A stretch of 18,841 nucleotides of DNA, taken from a virus (lineage: Duplodnaviria; Heunggongvirae; Uroviricota; Caudoviricetes). The first letter of the stretch is position 1. Each line of letters opens with the position of its first letter. The stretch lies in IMG/VR virus record IMGVR_UViG_2718217868_000006. One strand, 5' to 3'. Shown here piece by piece: positions 2,460 to 14,523 of this stretch. A model generated the notes under the pieces. The model made no database searches and was not told the DNA's origin. It saw only the letters and a program-made list of their open reading frames with translations. Position numbers and translations under genes: made by a program.

Positions 2460-2927
2460 TCATCGAAGGCATTGCGTCCTGATGTATTCCTGAAGCGTTC
2501 TCAGTGCTGTTTGGTCGCGGATAATTCCGTCCCGGATACCGAGAACGTTTCGTCCAGCAACTGGAGAGAGTTCGACGGTGGCATCATTGCCCATGCCGGA
2601 GGCGCTGGAGGTTTCGGCTGAGGATGGCACAGGGCATTTTCCTTTGACGAGCACCCGACCACCATTATCAAGCTTGCGCCGAAGAGCATCATTTTCAGCT
2701 TTCGCATCAGCTAACTCCTTCGTATATTTATCATCGAGTGCATCAGCATCACGCTGGCGCTGCTGCATGTCAGTAATGGTGGCGTTCGCCTTCTCCAGTT
2801 CACTGGCCTTGTTATCGCGCTGTTCTTTGTAGGCGATTGCATTATCACGGTAATGATTAACAGCCCATGACAGGCAGACGATGATGCAGATAACCAGAGC
2901 GGAGATAATCGCGGTTACCCTGCTCAT
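2460..2927 (-). CDS. Rz: Rz i-spanin (inner-membrane spanin subunit)
   Basis: N-terminal transmembrane segment then a charged coiled-coil region; ATG at 2927 overlaps the endolysin stop (ATGA). The ORF track extends to 2939 but 2927 (MSRV...) gives the classic overlap. Contains an embedded Rz1 ORF. Confidence 0.85.
2501..2707 (-). CDS. Rz1: Rz1 o-spanin (outer-membrane lipoprotein), embedded in Rz in another frame
   Basis: 68-aa ORF wholly inside Rz. Signal peptide with lipobox VVGC-S and a proline-rich mature region ([11 protein letters not shown]), like lambda Rz1. Confidence 0.85.
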
Positions 2928-3421
2928 TGTTGCCCCCACAAACAGACCTCACGCTCAATCTCACGACGAGTCATCAGGCCTTTCCATTGCTTACCGCCAG
3001 CGTATGCCCAGCGACGTAGCTGGTCACATGCGCCCTTGATATCGCCCTGGTTTATTTTGCGAAGAAGAGTAGATGTTCTGAAATTGCCTGCGCCCACGTT
3101 ATAGACGAACGAGTAAAGAGCGCCGCGCGTTGTTTCCGGTATATCGACTTTGATGTACGGGTTAATTTGTCTGGCTACCGTGGCAAGGTCTTTATTCAGG
3201 AGGGCTTTGCATTCTGCTTCGGTATACGTTTTACCGGGAATGATGTCTTTTCCTGTATGCCCGTGACATACAGTCCATACGCCAACGATATCTTTGTATG
3301 GTATGTAGCTGACACCTTCCAGACCATCGTTACCACTTGGGCCAGTGATTAACACTGATGCTATAGCAATTGCTCCGCCACCAATAGCAGCAGCAACGGC
3401 TTTTCGTAATGATGGAGGCAT
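2924..3421 (-). CDS. R: SAR endolysin (phage lysozyme, phage 21 R-like)
   Basis: 165-aa ORF with a Gly/Ala-rich N-terminal signal-anchor-release segment ([18 protein letters not shown]) followed by a T4-lysozyme-like domain. Start overlaps the holin stop at 3421. Confidence 0.9.
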
Positions 3422-3636
3422 TATTCACCTCTCGCAGCCTTGCGCTTATCTTCTTTAATCTTGAAATAAAGGTTTGTCAGGTACGTCAGCAGGCCAAATA
3501 CCAGGCTACCCAGCACACCTATTGCTGCCCACTGTGAGGGCGTGACTTTATCGAGCAGCTGTAAAAACCAGTAACCGGCACTACCTGCTGAGGTGCCATA
3601 GGCGACACCCGTTGTTAACTTATCCATGGATTTCAT
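3421..3636 (-). CDS. S: Class II holin/pinholin (phage 21 S-like) with dual-start motif
   Basis: 71-aa ORF beginning MKSM (Met1 at 3636, Met4 at 3627), two transmembrane segments and a charged C-terminus; closely matches remembered S21. SD GGAGGTGAGG upstream. Confidence 0.9.
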
Positions 3637-3730
3637 AGCCTCACCTCCGCAAATAACGGATGGTGTACACGGTTCGGAACGAAGAGGAAAGGTATAGAAG
3701 TTACATTAGCGTAAGGCTTGAACATCTATT

Positions 3731-3761
3731 CAAAAAGAAAAACGCCGCGATTATTCTGGCG
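3731..3761 (-). terminator. Putative intrinsic terminator after the AraC-family gene
   Basis: On the - strand: short GC stem (CGCC...GGCG) followed by UUUUUCUUUUU, about 60 nt after the AraC-type ORF stop. Confidence 0.4.
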
Positions 3762-3823
3762 TAGCTGAAAGCATCATACAATTATCAAATACGAAAATTA
3801 CAAAATCATTAAAACGCATCACG

Positions 3824-4411
3824 TTACATCATGTCTTTTTCTAAAAAAAATCTTGATGAATATTGATGGAGAGGAACACCAAAATACCTTCTGAAAACAC
3901 TTACAAAATATGACGTGTTTTCATAACCGCATATCTCAGCAACTTTTCCAACAGAATATAAATTGTAGCTTAATAACCTTTCCGCCATCACCATTCGCTC
4001 TTCAAGAATTAACTTACTAAATGATAAGCCTTCGTGCTTTAATTTTCTTTTTAACAGACTTTCACTCAGATACAGTCTTGAAGATATATCACAAAGTCTC
4101 CATGCTGCAGATATATCCGTATGAATAATAGCCTTAACTTTACTTCCTAAACTATTAAGACATCCAAATAAAAAACTTTGCACTATTTTCTCTGAAGATA
4201 AGATAGCAAGACATGCAAGTGATATTTGATTTCTAACAAAATCCACAGTTCTGCCATCACAATTCAAGCATGCAATCAAGTTCTTTAACAATGAAAAATC
4301 TTCACATTCCACCATCAAGTATGCCGGATAAAACCTTCTTACAGAAAAAGGTGAGAGTGTGTTGCTTTTAAAGAAATCATTAACTGTTTTCTCTTCAACA
4401 TCTACGATCAT
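3824..4411 (-). CDS. AraC/XylS-family transcriptional regulator (short, AT-rich cargo gene)
   Basis: 195-aa ORF with a C-terminal double helix-turn-helix region typical of AraC-family proteins (…SFSKLILEERMVMAERLL…VGKVAEICGYENTSYFVSVFRRYFGVPLHQY). Markedly AT-rich coding and flanking DNA. Confidence 0.7.
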   Translation of the reverse strand: MIVDVEEKTVNDFFKSNTLSPFSVRRFYPAYLMVECEDFSLLKNLIACLNCDGRTVDFVRNQISLACLAILSSEKIVQSFLFGCLNSLGSKVKAIIHTDISAAWRLCDISSRLYLSESLLKRKLKHEGLSFSKLILEERMVMAERLLSYNLYSVGKVAEICGYENTSYFVSVFRRYFGVPLHQYSSRFFLEKDMM

Positions 4412-4904
4412 TACATGATCTATATTTGATGAAAAAAATCTTTTAAATTGTAATCAATGAGAACAGCACTTCCTTTTTAAACAAAATATCTTCTTTACCA
4501 ATTCGGACATCAAACGAGTTCAACACCAAAATAATAGAACATATGTATGGCATATTATCCACCTGATATCATTGGGGTTACACCAGGTAAGTATAGGTGG
4601 AAAATCAATATTCGCCAGTTCAACAATAAGGAAAATTTCATTGCATCACAAGTATAAAATTATGTATTTAACTCACAAAGACAAATTATTAAACCAATCT
4701 GTTATATTATATATAGCTGCGTGGAATCATAATATTATATATTTTGACTGGCATGTTTACCAACTTTAAGTTGCATCTCAATTGTTTCTTCAGCGTAAAC
4801 AGAGTTTTTATACAAACTGACACTCTGGGTATCATAGTGTAGTTTTTACGATTGTAAATATCCTGCATGCAGGAACTCATCCTTTTGGATGATATCGCAT
4901 ACAA

Positions 4905-5864
4905 TTAATTTACCATCAGTCTTAGAGCCAGTTCGTCCGGATAGGGATCGAAGTAATTCTGTGTAAGCAAGTAATCATTAGGATACTCACCCAGATAATG
5001 CTTCAGCAGAGTCAACGGCGCAAGAAGAGGTAATGTGCCAGAACGATAGTTAAGTATAACCTCGCTCAACTCTTTACGCTGGCGTGTACTTAAGTAGTTA
5101 CTAAAATACCCCTGTATATGCATCAGCACATTCGTGTGATTTTTACGTGATGCAGGTTTTCTGAGAATCGCCATCAGCTTATCACGATACACCTCAAAGT
5201 ATGATTCAAGGTCCGCCCACTCGTGTATTGCAGCCACAAATGGTCCCATATCTTTATAGCCTGCCTGACTATGCGCCAACAACTGAAGCTTATAACGACT
5301 ATGAAAAGCTAATAACTCTCTTCTTGATAATTTCTCCTTGTAAAGGTGATTGAGCTCATGCAAAGCAAAAACTCTTTCAACAAAATTCTCACGAAGCACT
5401 GGATCATGTAATCGCCCATCCTCTTCAACCGGTAGCCAGGAAAACTTTTCCATCAAAGTGCTCGTAAATAGTCCCACTCCATCTTTACGACCTCGATTAC
5501 CATTTTCATCATAGACACGCACGCGCTCCATGCCACAGCTGGGAGATTTAGCACAAACCACAAACCCCGATACATCCTTTAATTTGTCCATATAAGAACG
5601 ACTAAACTCTGTCATTCTCTCTGTCACATCCTCATTCTGGTCGTGGCTGAAACACATCCGTATATTTCCTTGCATCGAGCGCACAAGACGTAGAGCAGGA
5701 CGCGGAACTGGCAGCCCTATAGCCATTTCCGGACATACTGGTCTGAATGTTACCCATTCCACTAATTTGTCCATTAAAAAGTCAGCTCTTTTGTGACCAC
5801 CATCAAAACGAACAGCAGAACCGGCCAAACAACCGCTGATTCCAATCACAGGTTTTTTTATCAT
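4905..5864 (-). CDS. DUF523(TudS-like)/DUF1722 fusion protein, putative [4Fe-4S] thionucleoside desulfidase (RudS-like)
   Basis: 319-aa ORF. N-terminal half has the three-Cys signature of DUF523/TudS (GISGCLAG, RPVCPE, SPSCG); C-terminal half resembles YbgA-type DUF1722. SD AGGGGGAGAAT upstream of ATG at 5864. Confidence 0.65.
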   Translation of the reverse strand: MIKKPVIGISGCLAGSAVRFDGGHKRADFLMDKLVEWVTFRPVCPEMAIGLPVPRPALRLVRSMQGNIRMCFSHDQNEDVTERMTEFSRSYMDKLKDVSGFVVCAKSPSCGMERVRVYDENGNRGRKDGVGLFTSTLMEKFSWLPVEEDGRLHDPVLRENFVERVFALHELNHLYKEKLSRRELLAFHSRYKLQLLAHSQAGYKDMGPFVAAIHEWADLESYFEVYRDKLMAILRKPASRKNHTNVLMHIQGYFSNYLSTRQRKELSEVILNYRSGTLPLLAPLTLLKHYLGEYPNDYLLTQNYFDPYPDELALRLMVN

Positions 5865-6056
5865 ATTCTCCCCCTTGACTAATTCATTAACACATAAACT
5901 GTGTAGTGCACGGAATAAATTGCCTTTCTGGCGTCATCACTGACAATTTTTCTGTTATGGACTATTCCTAATATAGTATGAAAGTTCTTTAAGTGATCGG
6001 TCGTAATCATCTATCTTTCATACTTACTCTCAACTATCAAAAGTACAGGATTTATT

Positions 6057-6581
6057 ATGAAGTTATGGCCTGTGTTGACTGGCATTGCACTCTCTTTCAC
6101 TCTTATAGCATGTAAGGCCCCGACACCACCTAAAGGTGTGCAGCCGATTACAAATTTTGACGCCAACCGCTACCTCGGAAAATGGTATGAAATAGCTCGC
6201 CTCGAGAACCGGTTCGAACGTGGTCTGGAACAGGTCAGCGCTACTTATGGAAAACGGAACGACGGAGGGATTCGTGTACTTAACCGTGGATACGATCCAA
6301 CGAAAAATAAATGGAGCGAGAGCGAAGGTAAAGCATACTTTACTGGAGATACTAAAACTGCAGCATTGAAGGTTTCGTTTTTTGGCCCCTTCTATGGTGG
6401 CTATAATGTAATCAAACTGGATGATGAGTATAAGTATGCTCTTGTCAGTGGTCCGAACAGAGAATACCTATGGATTCTGGCAAGGACCCCAACTATTCCA
6501 GATAAAGTAAAAGCAGACTATGTGCGAACCGCTCAAAAGTTGGGATTCAATGTCAATGAATTATTATGGGTTAAACAATAA
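6057..6581 (+). CDS. Bacterial lipocalin (Blc-like outer-membrane lipoprotein)
   Basis: 174-aa ORF with lipoprotein signal (lipobox LIAC) and strong similarity to remembered E. coli Blc (…FDANRYLGKWYEIARLENRFERGLE…KVSFFGPFYGGYNVI…YLWILARTP…). Encoded opposite to late transcription. Confidence 0.85.
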   Translation: MKLWPVLTGIALSFTLIACKAPTPPKGVQPITNFDANRYLGKWYEIARLENRFERGLEQVSATYGKRNDGGIRVLNRGYDPTKNKWSESEGKAYFTGDTKTAALKVSFFGPFYGGYNVIKLDDEYKYALVSGPNREYLWILARTPTIPDKVKADYVRTAQKLGFNVNELLWVKQ

Positions 6582-6609
6582 AATCCCTACCCGAAATAAT
6601 ACTTATTAG

Positions 6610-6636
6610 AAAAAAACCAGCCTTTGGGGAGGCTGG
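6610..6636 (-). terminator. Intrinsic terminator downstream of Q (tR'-like)
   Basis: On the - strand: CCAGCC-UCCCCAAA-GGCUGG hairpin followed by U7, about 100 nt after the Q stop, where a lambdoid late-leader terminator is expected. Confidence 0.55.
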
Positions 6637-6736
6637 CTAAATCAGGAAACAAGCTGTTATATGATAATAACTACGTTGCGATTCCAACATTTAAAATGTT
6701 AGACTAATGACAATCAGACAGCAACTTTTCCTTTAA
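6637..6736 (-). promoter_or_regulatory. Putative late promoter PR' / Q-utilisation region
   Basis: Position only: between the Q stop and the tR'-like terminator. Candidate -35/-10 hexamers (TTGCTG, 17-nt spacer, TAACAT on the - strand) are weak and not verified. Confidence 0.35.
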
Positions 6737-7129
6737 TTATTTCGAACAATCAGCATCCATCTCCAATCGGAGATCCAACACCATCAGCATACCCTCCACT
6801 ACGCCCTCAGCTTTCTGAAGCATCCTGCCAACCCAACAATCAGATCGCCCATGCTTACGTGCAAGCGCCATAAAAGTCATGCCGCCGACATAATAGTCCA
6901 CCAATAAATCATGCAAATCGCTGTTGTTCTTTTTCAGACGGGCCATGCACCCGCAAATGATCATCGCGTCATCGTCACAACATTGTGGGCGAGATTTTAC
7001 TTTTGAAGGAATTAATCCCTTAAAACCGGCGGCAATGGACGACCAGGTCACATCTTCATGATTATTAGCCGCCCACGCTCCCCAACGCTCAAGAACCATC
7101 TGAATATCACGCATCAACTTACTCCACAA
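6737..7129 (-). CDS. Q: Late-gene antiterminator Q (DLP12 QuuD / phage 21-82 type)
   Basis: 130-aa ORF with a Cys-rich segment ([12 protein letters not shown]) and similarity to remembered QuuD; sits between rusA/ylcG and the lysis genes. Start may be the internal Met at 7114. Confidence 0.75.
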
Positions 7130-7199: not shown

Positions 7200-7340
7200 T
7201 CATACTCCTGCTCCTGTCAGTGTTTTGGCGTAATTCTTCAGTATTCGGTAATCGGTCAAAACAGAACCGGGGAAACGATATAAGCGCAGACGCCCCCAGC
7301 GGTGGCGAAGAAGTTCTGCCATATTAAACTCAAACATCAT
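7200..7340 (-). CDS. ylcG: YlcG-like small protein (46 aa)
   Basis: Not on the ORF track (under 60 aa). ATG at 7340 overlaps the rusA stop (ATGA); translation [46 protein letters not shown] matches remembered DLP12 YlcG, between rusA and Q. Confidence 0.6.
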
Positions 7341-7699
7341 TCATTCCCCATTTCGGTGATGGTCAGTTCCAGCCTCCCACCTTTGGTAACAGGCATCTTC
7401 ACAACGCGGTAATCAACGACCTGAGCATCATCCAGCCAGAAACCTGCTTTAGTGAGTGCGTCAAAAGCGGCTTTTTGCAGATTATCCAGGTCACGGCGAC
7501 GGCGATCCGGCATGTGGCACTCAATGCGGATTTTCACAGGCATAGTCAGGCCGATATCCAGCATTGCGTTTTTAATGATTCGGGCGACGTTATCGCGGTA
7601 TGCCTGCCCCTCTGCGCTGACGTGCGTGCGCCCGCGATTATGGCGGTAATAGCGATTATTGCTCGGAGGCCAGGGTAATGTGATGCTGTAGGTATTCAC
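7337..7699 (-). CDS. rusA: Holliday junction resolvase RusA
   Basis: 120-aa ORF, GTG start, near-identical to remembered E. coli RusA ([26 protein letters not shown]…). Confidence 0.9.
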
Positions 7700-7788
7700 G
7701 CCTTAATAACCCCCTCTTTCAGCCAGATACGCTCCTGTCCGGCAAAGTTACCTCTGCCGAAGTTGAGTATTTTTGCTGTATTTGTCAT
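7696..7788 (-). pseudogene. O: Replication initiator O remnant: first 20 codons of lambda O fused to 10 unrelated codons
   Basis: ATG at 7788 with lambda O N-terminus MTNTAKILNFGRGNFAGQER, then divergence ([10 protein letters not shown], stop) running into the rusA GTG. No iterons/ori or P gene follow. Confidence 0.8.
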
Positions 7789-7798
7789 AATGACTCCT

Positions 7799-7875
7799 GT
7801 TGATAGATCCAGTAATGACCTCAGAACTCCATCTGGATTTGTTCAGAACGCTCGGTTGCCGCCGGGCGTTTTTTA
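7799..7875 (+). ncRNA. oop: oop antisense RNA (about 77 nt) overlapping the 3' end of cII
   Basis: + strand sequence GTTGATAGATCCAGTAATGACCTCAGAACTCCATCTGGATTTGTTCAGAACGCTCGGTTGCCGCCGGGCGTTTTTTAT matches remembered lambda oop RNA with its terminator. Candidate po promoter: -35 TTGAGT 7763..7768, -10 CATAAT 7786..7791. Confidence 0.7.
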
Positions 7876-8114
7876 TTGGTGAGAATCGCAGCAACTTGTC
7901 GCGCCAATCGAGCCATGTCGTCGTCAACGACCCCCCATTCAAGAACAGCAAGCAGCATTGAGAACTTTGGAATCCAGTCCCTCTTCCACCTGCTGATCTG
8001 CGACTTATCAACGCCCACAGCTTCCGCTGTCTTCTCAGTTCCAAGCATTGCGATTTTGTTAAGCAACGCACTCTCGATTCGTAGAGCCTCGTTGCGTTTG
8101 TTTGCACGAACCAT
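7821..8114 (-). CDS. cII: Transcriptional activator CII
   Basis: Translation from the ATG at 8114 (MVRANKRNEALRIESALLNKIAMLGTEKTAEAVGVDKSQISRWKRDWIPKFSMLLAVLEWGVVDDDMARLARQVAAILTNKKRPAATERSEQIQMEF, 97 aa) matches remembered lambda CII. The track ORF extends upstream to 8174, but the phage start is 8114. Confidence 0.9.
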   Translation of the reverse strand: MVRANKRNEALRIESALLNKIAMLGTEKTAEAVGVDKSQISRWKRDWIPKFSMLLAVLEWGVVDDDMARLARQVAAILTNKKRPAATERSEQIQMEF

Positions 8115-9941: not shown

Positions 9942-10265
9942 ATGGATGCACAAACACGCCGCCGCGAACGTCGCGCAGAGAAACAGGCTCAATGGAAAGC
10001 AGCAAATCCCCTGTTGGTTGGGGTAAGCGCAAAACCAGTTAACCGCCCTATTCTCTCGCTGAATCGCAAACCGAAATCACGAGTAGAAAGCGCACTGAAT
10101 CCGATAGACCTTACGGTGCTGGCTGAATACCACGAACAGATTGAAAGCAACCTGCAACGTATTGAGCGCAAGAATCATCGAGTTTGGTATAGCAAGCCAA
10201 GTGAGTTCGGTATAACTTGTCAAGGAAGACAAAAGGTTAAAGGGAAATCCATTCCATTGGCATGA
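9942..10265 (+). CDS. N: Antitermination protein N (lambda-like)
   Basis: Translation from the ATG at 9942 begins MDAQTRRRERRAEKQAQWKAANPLL, the arginine-rich boxB-binding motif of lambda N; 107 aa. The track ORF starts upstream at 9864. Confidence 0.9.
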   Translation: MDAQTRRRERRAEKQAQWKAANPLLVGVSAKPVNRPILSLNRKPKSRVESALNPIDLTVLAEYHEQIESNLQRIERKNHRVWYSKPSEFGITCQGRQKVKGKSIPLA

Positions 10266-10273
10266 GGTACGTA

Positions 10274-11143
10274 ATGAAGAAAATTGATTACAAGTCCATA
10301 CCAAAACCAATAGACTCAGCATCAGAGCGAAAAAAACACAAAAAAGAGGCTGAAAAATTAGCAAATTATATCAGTTTTATTAGAAACAATGCTCACGGCG
10401 ATGGCGACAGGAAGTTGCTTTCAGATGCCCGGACCCAAGCGTTCAGCATACTTCGTAAGCAGATGCAATATCGTCTTCATCCAGGCTACATAATTGAAAT
10501 TCGCCCGACTGAAAGACAATTGTTCTTATTAAACTCTGTCTTTGACTTTGTAAACGTAGTTGGAGATCTTATCGACAGGTCTGTAGATAAGGCTCCTGAT
10601 ACAAATAGTTTTCTTCTAACAAATAAAGAATACTTATATGGTAAATTTGGTATAAACGGATGGCAAAAATATGTACGATTCTTACGTGCATTCGTTGATG
10701 CGTATAAAAATTCCGACATGATTTATACATATTTGCCTGGTGGTAATAATTGTACGCTTTCGGCAGACAATAGAATATTCATACCTATACTTGGTCTTGG
10801 GCTGATTAATGCAGTAAATGAAAGAGATGTTATAATTGTTAAGCAGTGGCGAAAGCATGAGGGATATAGATATCTGCCATGCTTTGATATATTAAAAATA
10901 CAGAATAAATTCTATGTAAAAATTAAATATAAAGAAGATGTTTTCTTCCTCAGAAAAAACAAAGATCTTTTACAAGAACTTTCTGGGACAATAGATGTCA
11001 TCGTAGGTTCTAGGTTTATAAAAGAACTGAAAGAAAGCAGGTCTTTCTCTCGTGTAGAGATAAGCGAGTCAGAGTTATGGGGTATATCAAATAATCCTGT
11101 AAACCACGCTCACCAACGAAATCCAAACAAAAAGTGGTCATAA
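10274..11143 (+). CDS. Hypothetical protein, 289 aa, AT-rich; unrecognised gene in the N-to-ea10 slot
   Basis: Long ORF immediately after N (alternative ATG at 10262 overlaps the N stop; ATG at 10274 has a GAGG SD). No family recognised by eye; rich in Lys/Asn/Tyr/Phe. Followed by a strong terminator. Confidence 0.6.
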   Translation: MKKIDYKSIPKPIDSASERKKHKKEAEKLANYISFIRNNAHGDGDRKLLSDARTQAFSILRKQMQYRLHPGYIIEIRPTERQLFLLNSVFDFVNVVGDLIDRSVDKAPDTNSFLLTNKEYLYGKFGINGWQKYVRFLRAFVDAYKNSDMIYTYLPGGNNCTLSADNRIFIPILGLGLINAVNERDVIIVKQWRKHEGYRYLPCFDILKIQNKFYVKIKYKEDVFFLRKNKDLLQELSGTIDVIVGSRFIKELKESRSFSRVEISESELWGISNNPVNHAHQRNPNKKWS

Positions 11144-12425: not shown

Positions 12426-13211
12426 ATGAGTACAGCACTCGCAACGCTGGCTGGGAAGCTGGCTGAACGCGTCGGCATGGATTCTGTCGACCCACAGGAA
12501 CTGATCACCACTCTTCGCCAGACGGCATTTAAAGGTGATGCCAGCGATGCGCAGTTCATCGCATTGCTGATCGTCGCCAACCAGTACGGCCTTAATCCGT
12601 GGACGAAAGAAATTTACGCCTTCCCTGACAAGCAGAACGGCATCGTTCCGGTGGTGGGCGTTGATGGCTGGTCCCGTATCATCAATGAAAACCAGCAGTT
12701 TGATGGCATGGACTTTGAGCAGGACAATGAATCCTGCACATGCCGGATTTACCGCAAAGACCGCAATCATCCGATCTGCGTTACCGAGTGGATGGATGAA
12801 TGCCGCCGCGAACCATTCAAAACCCGCGAAGGCAGAGAAATCACGGGGCCGTGGCAGTCGCATCCCAAACGGATGTTACGGCATAAAGCCATGATTCAGT
12901 GTGCCCGTCTCGCCTTCGGATTTGCTGGTATCTATGACAAGGATGAAGCCGAGCGCATTGTCGAAAATACCGCATACACTGCAGAACGTCAGCCGGAACG
13001 CGACATCACTCCGGTTAACGATGAAACCATGCAGGAGATTAACACTCTGCTGATTGCCCTGGATAAAACATGGGATGACGACTTATTGCCGCTCTGTTCC
13101 CAGATATTTCGCCGCGACATTCGCGCATCGTCAGAACTGACACAGGCCGAAGCAGTGAAAGCTCTTGGATTCCTGAAACAGAAAGCCACTGAGCAGAAGG
13201 TGGCTGCATGA
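12426..13211 (+). CDS. bet: Bet (Red-beta single-strand annealing recombinase)
   Basis: 261-aa ORF near-identical to remembered lambda Bet ([37 protein letters not shown]…). Confidence 0.95.
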
Positions 13212-13888
13212 CACCGGACATTATCCTGCAGCGTACCGGAATCGACGTGAGAGCTGTCGAACAGGGGGATGATGCGTGGCACAAATTACGGCTCGGCGTC
13301 ATCACCGCTTCAGAAGTTCACAATGTGATAGCAAAACCCCGCTCCGGAAAAAAGTGGCCTGACATGAAAATGTCCTACTTCCACACCCTGCTGGCTGAGG
13401 TTTGCACCGGTGTGGCTCCGGAAGTTAATGCTAAGGCGCTGGCATGGGGAAAACAGTACGAGAACGACGCCAGAACTCTGTTTGAATTCACTTCCGGCGT
13501 GAATGTTACTGAATCCCCGATCATCTAACGCGACGAAAGTATGCGTACCGCCTGCTCTCCCGATGGTTTATGCAGTGACGGCAATGGCCTTGAGCTGAAA
13601 TGCCCGTTTACCTCCCGGGATTTCATGAAGTTCCGGCTCGGTGGTTTCGAGGCCATAAAGTCGGCTTACATGGCCCAGGTGCAGTACAGCATGTGGGTGA
13701 CGCGAAAAGATGCCTGGTACTTTGCCAACTATGACCCGCGTATGAAGCGTGAAGGCCTGCATTATGTCGTGGTTGAGCGGGATGAAAAGTACATGGCGAG
13801 TTTTGACGAGATGGTGCCGGAGTTCATCGAAAAAATGGACGAGGCACTGGCTGAAATTGGTTTTGTATTTGGGGAGCAATGGCGATGA
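13208..13888 (+). pseudogene. exo: exo (lambda Red 5'-3' exonuclease) interrupted by an in-frame ochre codon at 13526..13528
   Basis: A single frame of 226 codons matches lambda Exo throughout ([11 protein letters not shown]…GEQWR), but codon 107 is TAA where lambda has Tyr (…ESPII[15 protein letters not shown]…). The ORF track shows the two halves as 13208..13528 and 13541..13888. Confidence 0.85.
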
Positions 13889-14067
13889 AGCATCCTCACG
13901 ATAATATCCGGGTAGGTGCGATCACTTTCGTCTACTCCGTTACAAAGCGAGGCTGGGTATTTCCCGGCCTTTCTGTTATCAGAAATCCCCTGAAAGCACA
14001 GCGGCTGGCTGAGGAGATAAATAATAAACGGGGGGCTGTATGCACAAAGCATCTCCTGTTGAGTTAA
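13885..14067 (+). CDS. Lambda early-left small ORF (orf60a-like)
   Basis: Small ORF overlapping the end of exo in lambda-like arrangement. Start assigned to the second Met (60 aa) by analogy with lambda; it could be 13879. Confidence 0.55.
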
Positions 14068-14231
14068 GAACGTGTATCGAGATGGCACATAGCCTCGCTC
14101 AAATTGGAGTCAGGTTTGTGCCAATACCAGTAGAAACAGACGAAGAATTTCATACGTTAGCCGCATCCCTTTCACAAAAGCTGGAAATGATGGTGGCGAA
14201 AGCAGAAGCAGATGAGAGAGACCAGGTATGA
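14040..14231 (+). CDS. Lambda early-left small ORF (orf63-like)
   Basis: 63-aa ORF in the lambda-like position between exo and ea22. Confidence 0.6.
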   Translation: MHKASPVELRTCIEMAHSLAQIGVRFVPIPVETDEEFHTLAASLSQKLEMMVAKAEADERDQV

Positions 14232-14307
14232 CAACCACTGAATGCATTTTTCTGGCAGCGGGCTTCATATTCTGTGTGCTTATGCTTGCCGACATGGGGC
14301 TTGTTCA

Positions 14308-14523
14308 ATGACACCTCAGCAAGAAAACGCCCTTCGCAGCATTGCCCGTCAGGCTAATTCTGAAATCAAAAAAGCCAGACAGCAGTTTCCGGATAAAAAC
14401 GTCGATGACATTTGCCGTAGCGTACTGAAGAAGCACCGCGAAACGGTAACGCTGATGGGATTCACACCGACTCATTTAAGCCTGGCGATCGGCATGTTAA
14501 ACGGCGTCTTTAAGGAACGGTGA
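14308..14523 (+). CDS. Lambda early-left small ORF (orf61-like); start uncertain
   Basis: Track ORF 14242..14523; the internal ATG at 14308 (MTPQQENALRSIARQANSEIKKARQQF…) is the more plausible start. Name assigned by position only. Confidence 0.45.
   Translation: MTPQQENALRSIARQANSEIKKARQQFPDKNVDDICRSVLKKHRETVTLMGFTPTHLSLAIGMLNGVFKER

Follow-up and report, generated by a model that had tools for sequence, protein, structure and literature searches.

A probable lysogenic-conversion cassette of lipocalin, rudS and AraC-type regulator genes between Q and the holin gene of a defective lambdoid prophage of Escherichia coli

Lambdoid phages carry host-changing genes, for example that of Shiga toxin, between the late antiterminator gene Q and the lysis genes, and expression of stx depends on Q. 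Here we analyse this interval in an 18,841-nucleotide stretch of viral DNA (IMG/VR record IMGVR_UViG_2718217868_000006, Caudoviricetes; hereafter ‘the window’), where it holds genes for a Blc-like lipocalin, a DUF523/DUF1722 fusion protein and an AraC-type regulator. Relatives of the first two have been described, both from the cassette of phage 1H12: blc figures among the morons of 19 infant-gut lambda phages, occurring in more than 50% of them (Mathieu et al. 2020, PMC6969025), and RudS_vir belongs to the RudS proteins, which join a TudS desulfidase to DUF1722 and remove 4-thiouridine (s4U) from tRNA (2024, PMC11417400). Overexpression of RudS_vir in E. coli lowered tRNA s4U, and RudS overexpression lessens UVA-induced growth delay (PMC11417400). 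The third gene is related to the prophage-borne regulators PatE and PsrB, which activate gadE and hdeA and are accompanied by a mention of six additional Psr homologs in the same paper (PMC10877973). The moron and RudS_vir are already published, and the cassette is a common one; what we add is the linkage of lipocalin and rudS in chromosomes, the PatE/Psr-type character and the broken state of the regulator, the prevalence of the island and the strand logic of its late transcription. We read the locus as a lysogenic-conversion (‘moron’) cassette of two origins, lodged in the hypervariable slot between Q, the late promoter pR' and the terminator tR' on one side and the holin gene on the other, in an E. 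coli lambdoid prophage; we put the probability of this reading at roughly 80%. The features of the cassette are as follows:

6057–6581, plus strand: Blc-type lipocalin lipoprotein (Lipocalin_2, PF08212, 150 bits)
5865–6056, no strand assigned: divergent spacer between lipocalin and rudS, 192 bp by sequence
4905–5864, minus strand: rudS, a TudS (DUF523)–DUF1722 fusion (PF04463 over residues 7–149, 137 bits; PF08349 over residues 192–309, 140 bits)
3824–4553, minus strand: PatE/Psr-like AraC-family regulator gene, frameshifted according to alignment with intact alleles; the 195-amino-acid open reading frame (ORF) at 3824–4411 is its remnant

A first-pass annotation, made from the letters of the window, had placed three ORFs at 3824–4411 (minus), 4905–5864 (minus) and 6057–6581 (plus), which is where we find them, and its Blc-like lipocalin, DUF523/DUF1722 and AraC-type identities are upheld by Pfam and NCBIfam; the divergent spacer, given there as 193 bp, spans 5865–6056 and measures 192 bp.

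As judged by its sequence, the DUF523/DUF1722 protein is RudS, a tRNA 4-thiouridine desulfidase, and its function need no longer be called unknown. The protein is 93% identical to RudS_vir (gp66 of phage 1H12), its CPE and SPSC motifs are intact, and it keeps Cys12, Cys44 and Cys110, the residues that bind the [4Fe-4S] cluster in RudS_vir and RudS_ST (Table 1, PMC11417400). It is expected to convert s4U8 of host tRNA to U, an activity demonstrated for the 93%-identical orthologue. E. coli has been stated to lack RudS, with YbgA inactive in the growth assay (PMC11417400). Counting presence at ≥80% coverage, we detected full-length rudS in 1064 of 5426 complete E. coli genomes, or about one in five: the statement is true of K-12, which has YbgA only, but not of the species.

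The lipocalin matches the NCBIfam Blc model NF007786 over residues 1–174 at 316 bits (cutoff 267). Its signal, MKLWPVLTGIALSFTLIAC followed by KAP, was read by eye and aligns with that of Blc: the lipobox is LIAC with the lipid-bearing position at Cys19, and the residue at +2 is Lys, a non-Asp residue as is required for sorting to the outer membrane. The protein would accordingly be expected to be an outer-membrane lipoprotein that, by homology with Blc, binds lipids (lysophospholipids or fatty acids). It is 97% identical to gp65 of phage 1H12 and 60% identical to K-12 Blc, while identity to the RudS-linked lipocalins of Enterobacter and Leclercia is 78–82%, which makes these paralogues from other genera nearer relatives of the phage protein than the Blc of E. 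coli itself.

The phrase ‘RudS-linked’ refers to a chromosomal arrangement that bears directly on the origin of the cassette. We surveyed 63 enterobacterial species loci encoding a RudS 66–76% identical to the phage protein. In 41 of them a lipocalin gene (product 69–82% identical) lies divergently upstream of rudS, and 36 of these 41 share the order lipocalin (minus), MerR/MlrA-type regulator (plus), transthyretin-like gene (plus), rudS (plus). Genera with the divergent pair include Enterobacter, Leclercia and Citrobacter; Citrobacter sedlakii and Citrobacter sp. JGM124 have nothing but a spacer of ~190–230 bp between the two genes, as in the phage, and housekeeping genes around them (in C. 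sedlakii, transporter and pseudouridine-synthase genes). The three cargo genes had been called unrelated; for lipocalin and rudS this does not hold, the two being a conserved divergent chromosomal pair. Since they are divergent neighbours in 41 of the 63 species loci, the two genes were probably captured together from an enterobacterial chromosome, minus the MerR-type regulator. None of the 63 loci contains the AraC-type regulator, whose homologues are almost restricted to Escherichia (Salmonella and Shigella entries are rare), and we infer that this AT-rich gene is a separate, Escherichia-restricted addition. The description of all three as non-phage genes is doubtful for the regulator, a member of the PatE/Psr family typical of prophages.

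The neighbours of chromosomal rudS are tRNA- and stress-flavoured: an MlrA-like MerR regulator and a transthyretin/HIUase-like protein are encoded upstream of it in Enterobacter, and in C. sedlakii the gene directly 3' of rudS encodes an S4-domain pseudouridine synthase (locus L013, 7101–7994; L029 entry, 4663–5898). A linkage to photolyase, as in E. coli ybgA-phr and in Pseudomonas, was considered and rejected: no Phr homologue is encoded within 4 kb of rudS at any of the 63 loci.

The regulator had been taken for a naturally short protein. It is instead the remnant of a 243-amino-acid gene: phages IdasGreatGrand and Lambda_2E9 carry an intact 732-bp version, and relative to it the window has lost one A (A6 to A5, at 4474–4478) and one T (T8 to T7, at 4432–4438), so that translation stops after 38 codons. 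PGAP likewise labels the gene ‘frameshifted’. The surviving 195-amino-acid ORF covers the C-terminal DNA-binding region, an AraC-type double helix-turn-helix (Pfam HTH_18 at residues 110–185, HTH_AraC at residues 152–183), and its ATG has no preceding Shine-Dalgarno sequence. The frameshifts are predicted to inactivate the regulator in the window, where at most the lipocalin and RudS can act.

Over 235 residues that include the N-terminal domain, the intact IdasGreatGrand protein and ECs_0287 of Sakai prophage Sp1 are 54% identical; the latter is probably PatE, judging from its location in Sp1/OI-8. Identity to PsrA (ECs_1087) is 39–47% (39% over 235 residues for the IdasGreatGrand allele), too low for an orthologue of PsrA. 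The best NCBIfam matches, YdeO first, then HilD and GadX, all score far below cutoff, which likewise rules out assignment as YdeO or GadX. On these alignments the regulator is a PatE/Psr homologue but clearly a separate paralogue, and by homology an intact copy would be expected to switch on acid-resistance genes of the GAD/hdeAB type.

Length variation at the two homopolymers is not confined to the window. In the 49 scored IMG/VR loci of the same allele the T-run is T8 in 41, T7 in five, T6 in two and T9 in one; the A-run is A5 here and A6 elsewhere, among otherwise near-identical copies; and in protein clusters the truncated 195-amino-acid form has 623 members as against 1131 for the 243-amino-acid form. 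This variation could reflect a slippage hot spot or phase variation, or else homopolymer sequencing error. As a side observation, PsrA of Sakai (ECs_1087, locus 13804–14391) is itself 195 amino acids long in RefSeq, while its frame is open for 237 amino acids from an ATG at 13678, and the added N-terminal extension aligns with the N-terminus of the 243-amino-acid cassette regulator; the annotated psrA start may therefore be too short.

The slot that holds these genes is defined by the following flanking features:

6737–7114, minus strand: late antiterminator Q, 125 amino acids from ATG (PF06530, 173 bits)
6696–6724, minus strand: candidate late promoter pR', TTGCTG, 17 nt, TAACAT (read by eye)
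6607–6638, minus strand: intrinsic terminator tR' (stem at 6615–6638; G+C-rich 9-bp stem, 6-nt loop, U7)
3421–3636, minus strand: holin essD, P21-type, the first lysis gene after the cargo (PF04971, 121 bits)

The mechanical ORF of Q runs on to a TTG at 7129, and the protein shows a distant match to the Q21 structures 6P18/6JNX. The pR'-like sequence occurs once in the window, which leaves no second copy closer to the holin. The tR' hairpin folds with a ΔG of −14.9 kcal/mol, and the terminator scan puts it 100–130 nt beyond the Q stop codon, where tR' would be expected. Together, the PF06530 match, the terminator downstream of Q and the P21-type holin uphold the placement of the island between Q/tR' and the holin. 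The cargo differs from its surroundings in base composition: GC content is 31.5% in the regulator, 43% in rudS and 44% in the lipocalin gene, as compared to 48–50% in Q and the lysis genes, a departure from the phage backbone that is characteristic of morons.

Comparison with K-12 delimits the exchanged block. Prophage DLP12 shares rusA, ylcG, the first ~230 nt of Q (K-12 quuD and our Q are near-identical over this 5' part and divergent thereafter) and essD from its ribosome-binding site on; between these shared flanks it has nmpC, interrupted by IS5. These limits of homology imply that the exchanged block spans mid-Q to the start of the holin gene. The cargo travels as a single unit with pR'/tR' and the C-terminal half of Q. 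Identity across the 141-nt segment that begins at the Q stop and ends beyond tR' is 97–100% in 81 of 83 related loci, and in 79 of 80 viral contigs the cassette is joined to one Q allele (97–100% identity). The holin beside it is 90–100% identical in these contigs, and the endolysin is one of two unrelated types.

DLP12 also bears on the status of the three genes. That the Q-to-holin slot receives accessory cargo, as the first-pass annotation had proposed, agrees with a prophage that shares part of Q and the holin and has nmpC between them. The opposite view, that the three genes are a conserved core module needed for the life cycle of this phage group, could appeal to their constant order and to their presence in more than half of one gut lambda phage collection. 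We consider it next to impossible: DLP12 has nmpC in their place between the same flanks, about 80% of complete E. coli genomes have no island even though a query widened to Q and the holin finds matches in 4506 of the 5426, the domains are cellular ones (lipocalin, desulfidase, AraC) with chromosomal counterparts, and there is no match to defence-system models. The last point also disposes of an anti-phage defence system, PADLOC matching none of the three proteins.

The three genes do move as a group: 992 of the 5426 complete E. coli genomes have the entire island, with individual counts of 1042 for the lipocalin, 1064 for rudS and 992 for the regulator, and it falls into three sequence types (~99, 93 and 89% identity). 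It also occurs in 12 isolated phages, including IdasGreatGrand (99%) and infant-gut lambda phages (89%). The order and orientation Q, lipocalin, rudS, regulator, holin are constant in 73 of the 80 IMG/VR contigs; of the other seven, three end too early to tell and four have no detectable regulator or holin. To gauge selection, we compared RudS and the lipocalin of the window with those of phage 1H12, and the regulator of the intact IdasGreatGrand allele with that of 1H12. The dN/dS ratios are 0.11 for RudS, 0.06 for the lipocalin and 0.25 for the regulator (cargo dS 0.2–0.37), as compared to 0.10 for Q and 0.05 for the holin: all three genes are under purifying selection, kept functional while moving together.

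These values decide against a reading of the cassette as a passenger without selective value, carried along by a successful Q/pR' allele and slowly decaying. Such a reading would accommodate the tight linkage to one Q allele, the frameshifted regulator of the window together with the deviant T-run in eight of the 49 scored alleles, and the insertion sequence (IS) elements found in the island, BL21(DE3) being left with Q, the lipocalin and a rudS stump. Neutral hitch-hiking is, however, contradicted by dN/dS ratios that, at the divergence given above, are as low as those of Q and the holin; the full island is, moreover, kept in 992 genomes as three sequence types, and a RudS orthologue is enzymatically active. 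We therefore hold neutrality to be very improbable. In BL21(DE3) (NC_012971.2, 1588189–1589585) it is a second prophage, of the Qin type, that carries the same Q allele and the lipocalin; the first ~49 codons of rudS remain, directly beside an IS3 element, so this common expression strain has the phage lipocalin but no functional RudS.

How the cassette might be expressed follows in part from the strands. RudS and the regulator are encoded on the late strand, whereas the lipocalin gene is antisense to late transcription. Q-dependent read-through had been predicted for the cargo as a whole; the strand is correct for rudS and the regulator, but read-through cannot express the lipocalin, as the latter is antisense. 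On the late strand from tR' to the holin the terminator scan gave no further terminator-like site. Two sub-threshold Rfam matches, at and beside the tR' hairpin, were judged to be chance, leaving no candidate structured RNA or small RNA in the spacers. In our model each of the three genes would be read from its own promoter in the lysogen. Upon induction, Q-modified RNA polymerase starting at pR' would read through tR' and then antisense across the lipocalin gene, and the same late transcript would go on to cover rudS and the regulator gene before reaching the lysis genes. In this way read-through could increase the levels of RudS and of the regulator, though not that of the lipocalin.

The same logic could be pressed further, making rudS mainly an auxiliary gene of the phage late operon rather than a benefit to the lysogen: expressed by Q read-through after induction by UV or sunlight, RudS would erase s4U8, sparing the cell s4U8–C13 cross-linking, the stringent response and growth delay, so that late phage proteins are still translated. 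The position of rudS, which in each of the 80 viral contigs follows tR' directly and shares the orientation of Q and the holin, speaks for this, as do the lack of a terminator-like site up to the holin, the loss of the chromosomal MerR-type regulator from the phage version and the reduction of UVA-induced growth delay by RudS overexpression (PMC11417400). However, SOS induction proceeds via UVB, UVC and other DNA damage, while s4U cross-linking needs UVA; late expression begins minutes before lysis, leaving little time for turnover of the tRNA pool; purifying selection retains the gene in defective prophages like that of the window, which are unable to make phage; and the strong Shine-Dalgarno sequence before rudS and the 192-bp upstream region fit independent expression. 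On balance we find an auxiliary role unlikely and keep to lysogenic conversion as the preferred reading.

Two further spacers are relevant to independent expression:

4554–4904, minus strand: AT-rich (32% GC) 351-bp spacer upstream of the regulator gene, from scan and composition
3637–3823, minus strand: spacer before the holin, with a weak hairpin and T-run at ~3745–3775, from sequence and fold

The 192-bp divergent spacer contains a single promoter-like site, on the minus strand at 6033–6006. The spacer at 4554–4904 contains two sites that match the sigma-70 consensus at 10 of 12 positions (4858–4831 and 4763–4734), a number equal to the shuffle expectation. Neither the terminator scan nor folding revealed a clear terminator after rudS or after the regulator, and the hairpin at ~3745–3775 failed the terminator scan. 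The divergent spacer also contains a perfect 10-nt inverted repeat (5975–5984, AGTATGAAAG; 6015–6024, CTTTCATACT; 30 nt apart), which may be an operator or may have arisen by chance in AT-rich DNA.

Several observations weigh against a selected conversion cassette of the origin we propose. The nearest chromosomal relatives are just 66–76% (RudS) and 69–82% (lipocalin) identical, too distant to point to a donor. A number of genomes have insertion sequences and frameshifts within the island (IS1, IS2, IS3, IS5 and IS200 lie there in several), from which it follows that selection on the island is not absolute. Although well expressed, RudS_vir showed lower activity towards tRNA than did other RudS proteins in the published assay (PMC11417400). 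The promoter calls in the spacers are consensus matches, no commoner than in shuffled sequence. Lastly, the 192-bp spacer has no alignable DNA conservation with the spacers of the Citrobacter chromosomal lipocalin/rudS pairs; conservation of an operator between phage and chromosome was rejected on this ground.

The prophage itself is decayed. The window is 100% identical to DNA of E. coli strain H6, where it corresponds to a lambda-like prophage, defective and located at the lambda attachment site, with bioA/ybhB on one side and ybhC on the other; O, P and the nin region are gone between cII and rusA, and head and tail genes are absent. The deletion is visible in the window at 7560–7960, where cII (7821–8114) abuts rusA (7337–7699) with loss of O, P, ren and most of nin. 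Of the 5426 complete E. coli genomes, two, those of strains H6 and H5, have this junction, a frequency that rules out a domesticated remnant of wide distribution: the cargo cassette is common, whereas the defect is strain-specific. The lambda exonuclease gene (13208–13888, plus) is split by an internal stop into ORFs at 13208–13528 and 13541–13888 and is called a pseudogene by PGAP, further evidence of prophage decay. The remaining lysis genes continue on the late strand:

2924–3421, minus strand: lysozyme (Pfam)
2460–2939, minus strand: Rz (Pfam)

Elsewhere in the window, just 3' of N, lies an AT-rich (30–37% GC) ORF of 293 amino acids (10262–11143, plus). It belongs to phrog_12139, of unknown function, Pfam and PADLOC gave no match to it, and over its final 20 residues there is a weak resemblance to the C-terminal end of Nun-like termination factors (phrog_5632, E=4e-5); it could be a further moron or an exclusion gene.

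Through the cassette about one in five sequenced E. coli strains has genes for an enzyme that erases a tRNA modification, a lipoprotein of the envelope and a regulator of the acid-resistance type, and otherwise similar strains could thereby come to differ in near-UV tolerance, envelope behaviour and acid tolerance. The presence of RudS in part of the species matters for studies of tRNA s4U in non-K-12 strains, and the chromosomal linkage of lipocalin and rudS is a clue, amenable to testing, to what bacterial lipocalins, whose biological role is unknown, do in the cell. A bolder and speculative idea, one that we think is probably wrong, is that the pair is a light or photo-oxidative stress module rewired by lambdoid phages, its MerR-type sensor lost and the module placed behind Q. 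If it were true, a sunlight-induced prophage would erase the UVA-sensitive s4U and keep host translation running until lysis, and in the lysogen the pair would blunt the near-UV growth-delay response of the host.

Of the known systems, the closest is the gp65–gp67 cassette of phage 1H12 (also in Lambda_2E9 and IdasGreatGrand), which has the same three genes in the same order and orientation and the same flanks: Q, ylcG and rusA upstream, holin downstream. The 1H12 proteins are 93% (RudS), 97% (lipocalin) and 98% (Q) identical to those of the window, whose DNA represents a different allele (89% identical to 1H12, 99% to IdasGreatGrand); unlike in the 1H12 group, the regulator of the window is frameshifted and its prophage defective. 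The chromosomal cluster of Enterobacter, Leclercia, Lelliottia and Citrobacter, to which Salmonella orf242-orf319 (RudS_ST) is related, has the lipocalin divergent from rudS as in the phage; the phage version is without the MerR-type and transthyretin-like genes, has an unrelated intergenic sequence and has gained the AraC-type gene downstream. With single proteins of E. coli the cargo shares less: Blc, at 60% identity, agrees with the lipocalin in fold family and lipoprotein signal, and YbgA matches the DUF1722 part of RudS (49% identity) and has no desulfidase domain. PatE, PsrA and PsrB of the E. coli O157:H7 prophages have in common with the cassette regulator the size class (237–247 amino acids) and an AT-rich prophage location, which for PsrA in Sakai Sp4 is also between Q and the lysis genes; the cassette regulator is nonetheless a distinct paralogue with no link to effector or pch genes, and is broken in the window. 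Finally, while the cassette carries neither toxin nor porin, it occupies the same slot, 3' of Q/pR'/tR' and 5' of the holin, as stx in Stx phages and nmpC in DLP12, and the nmpC of DLP12 runs opposite to late transcription, just as the cassette lipocalin does.

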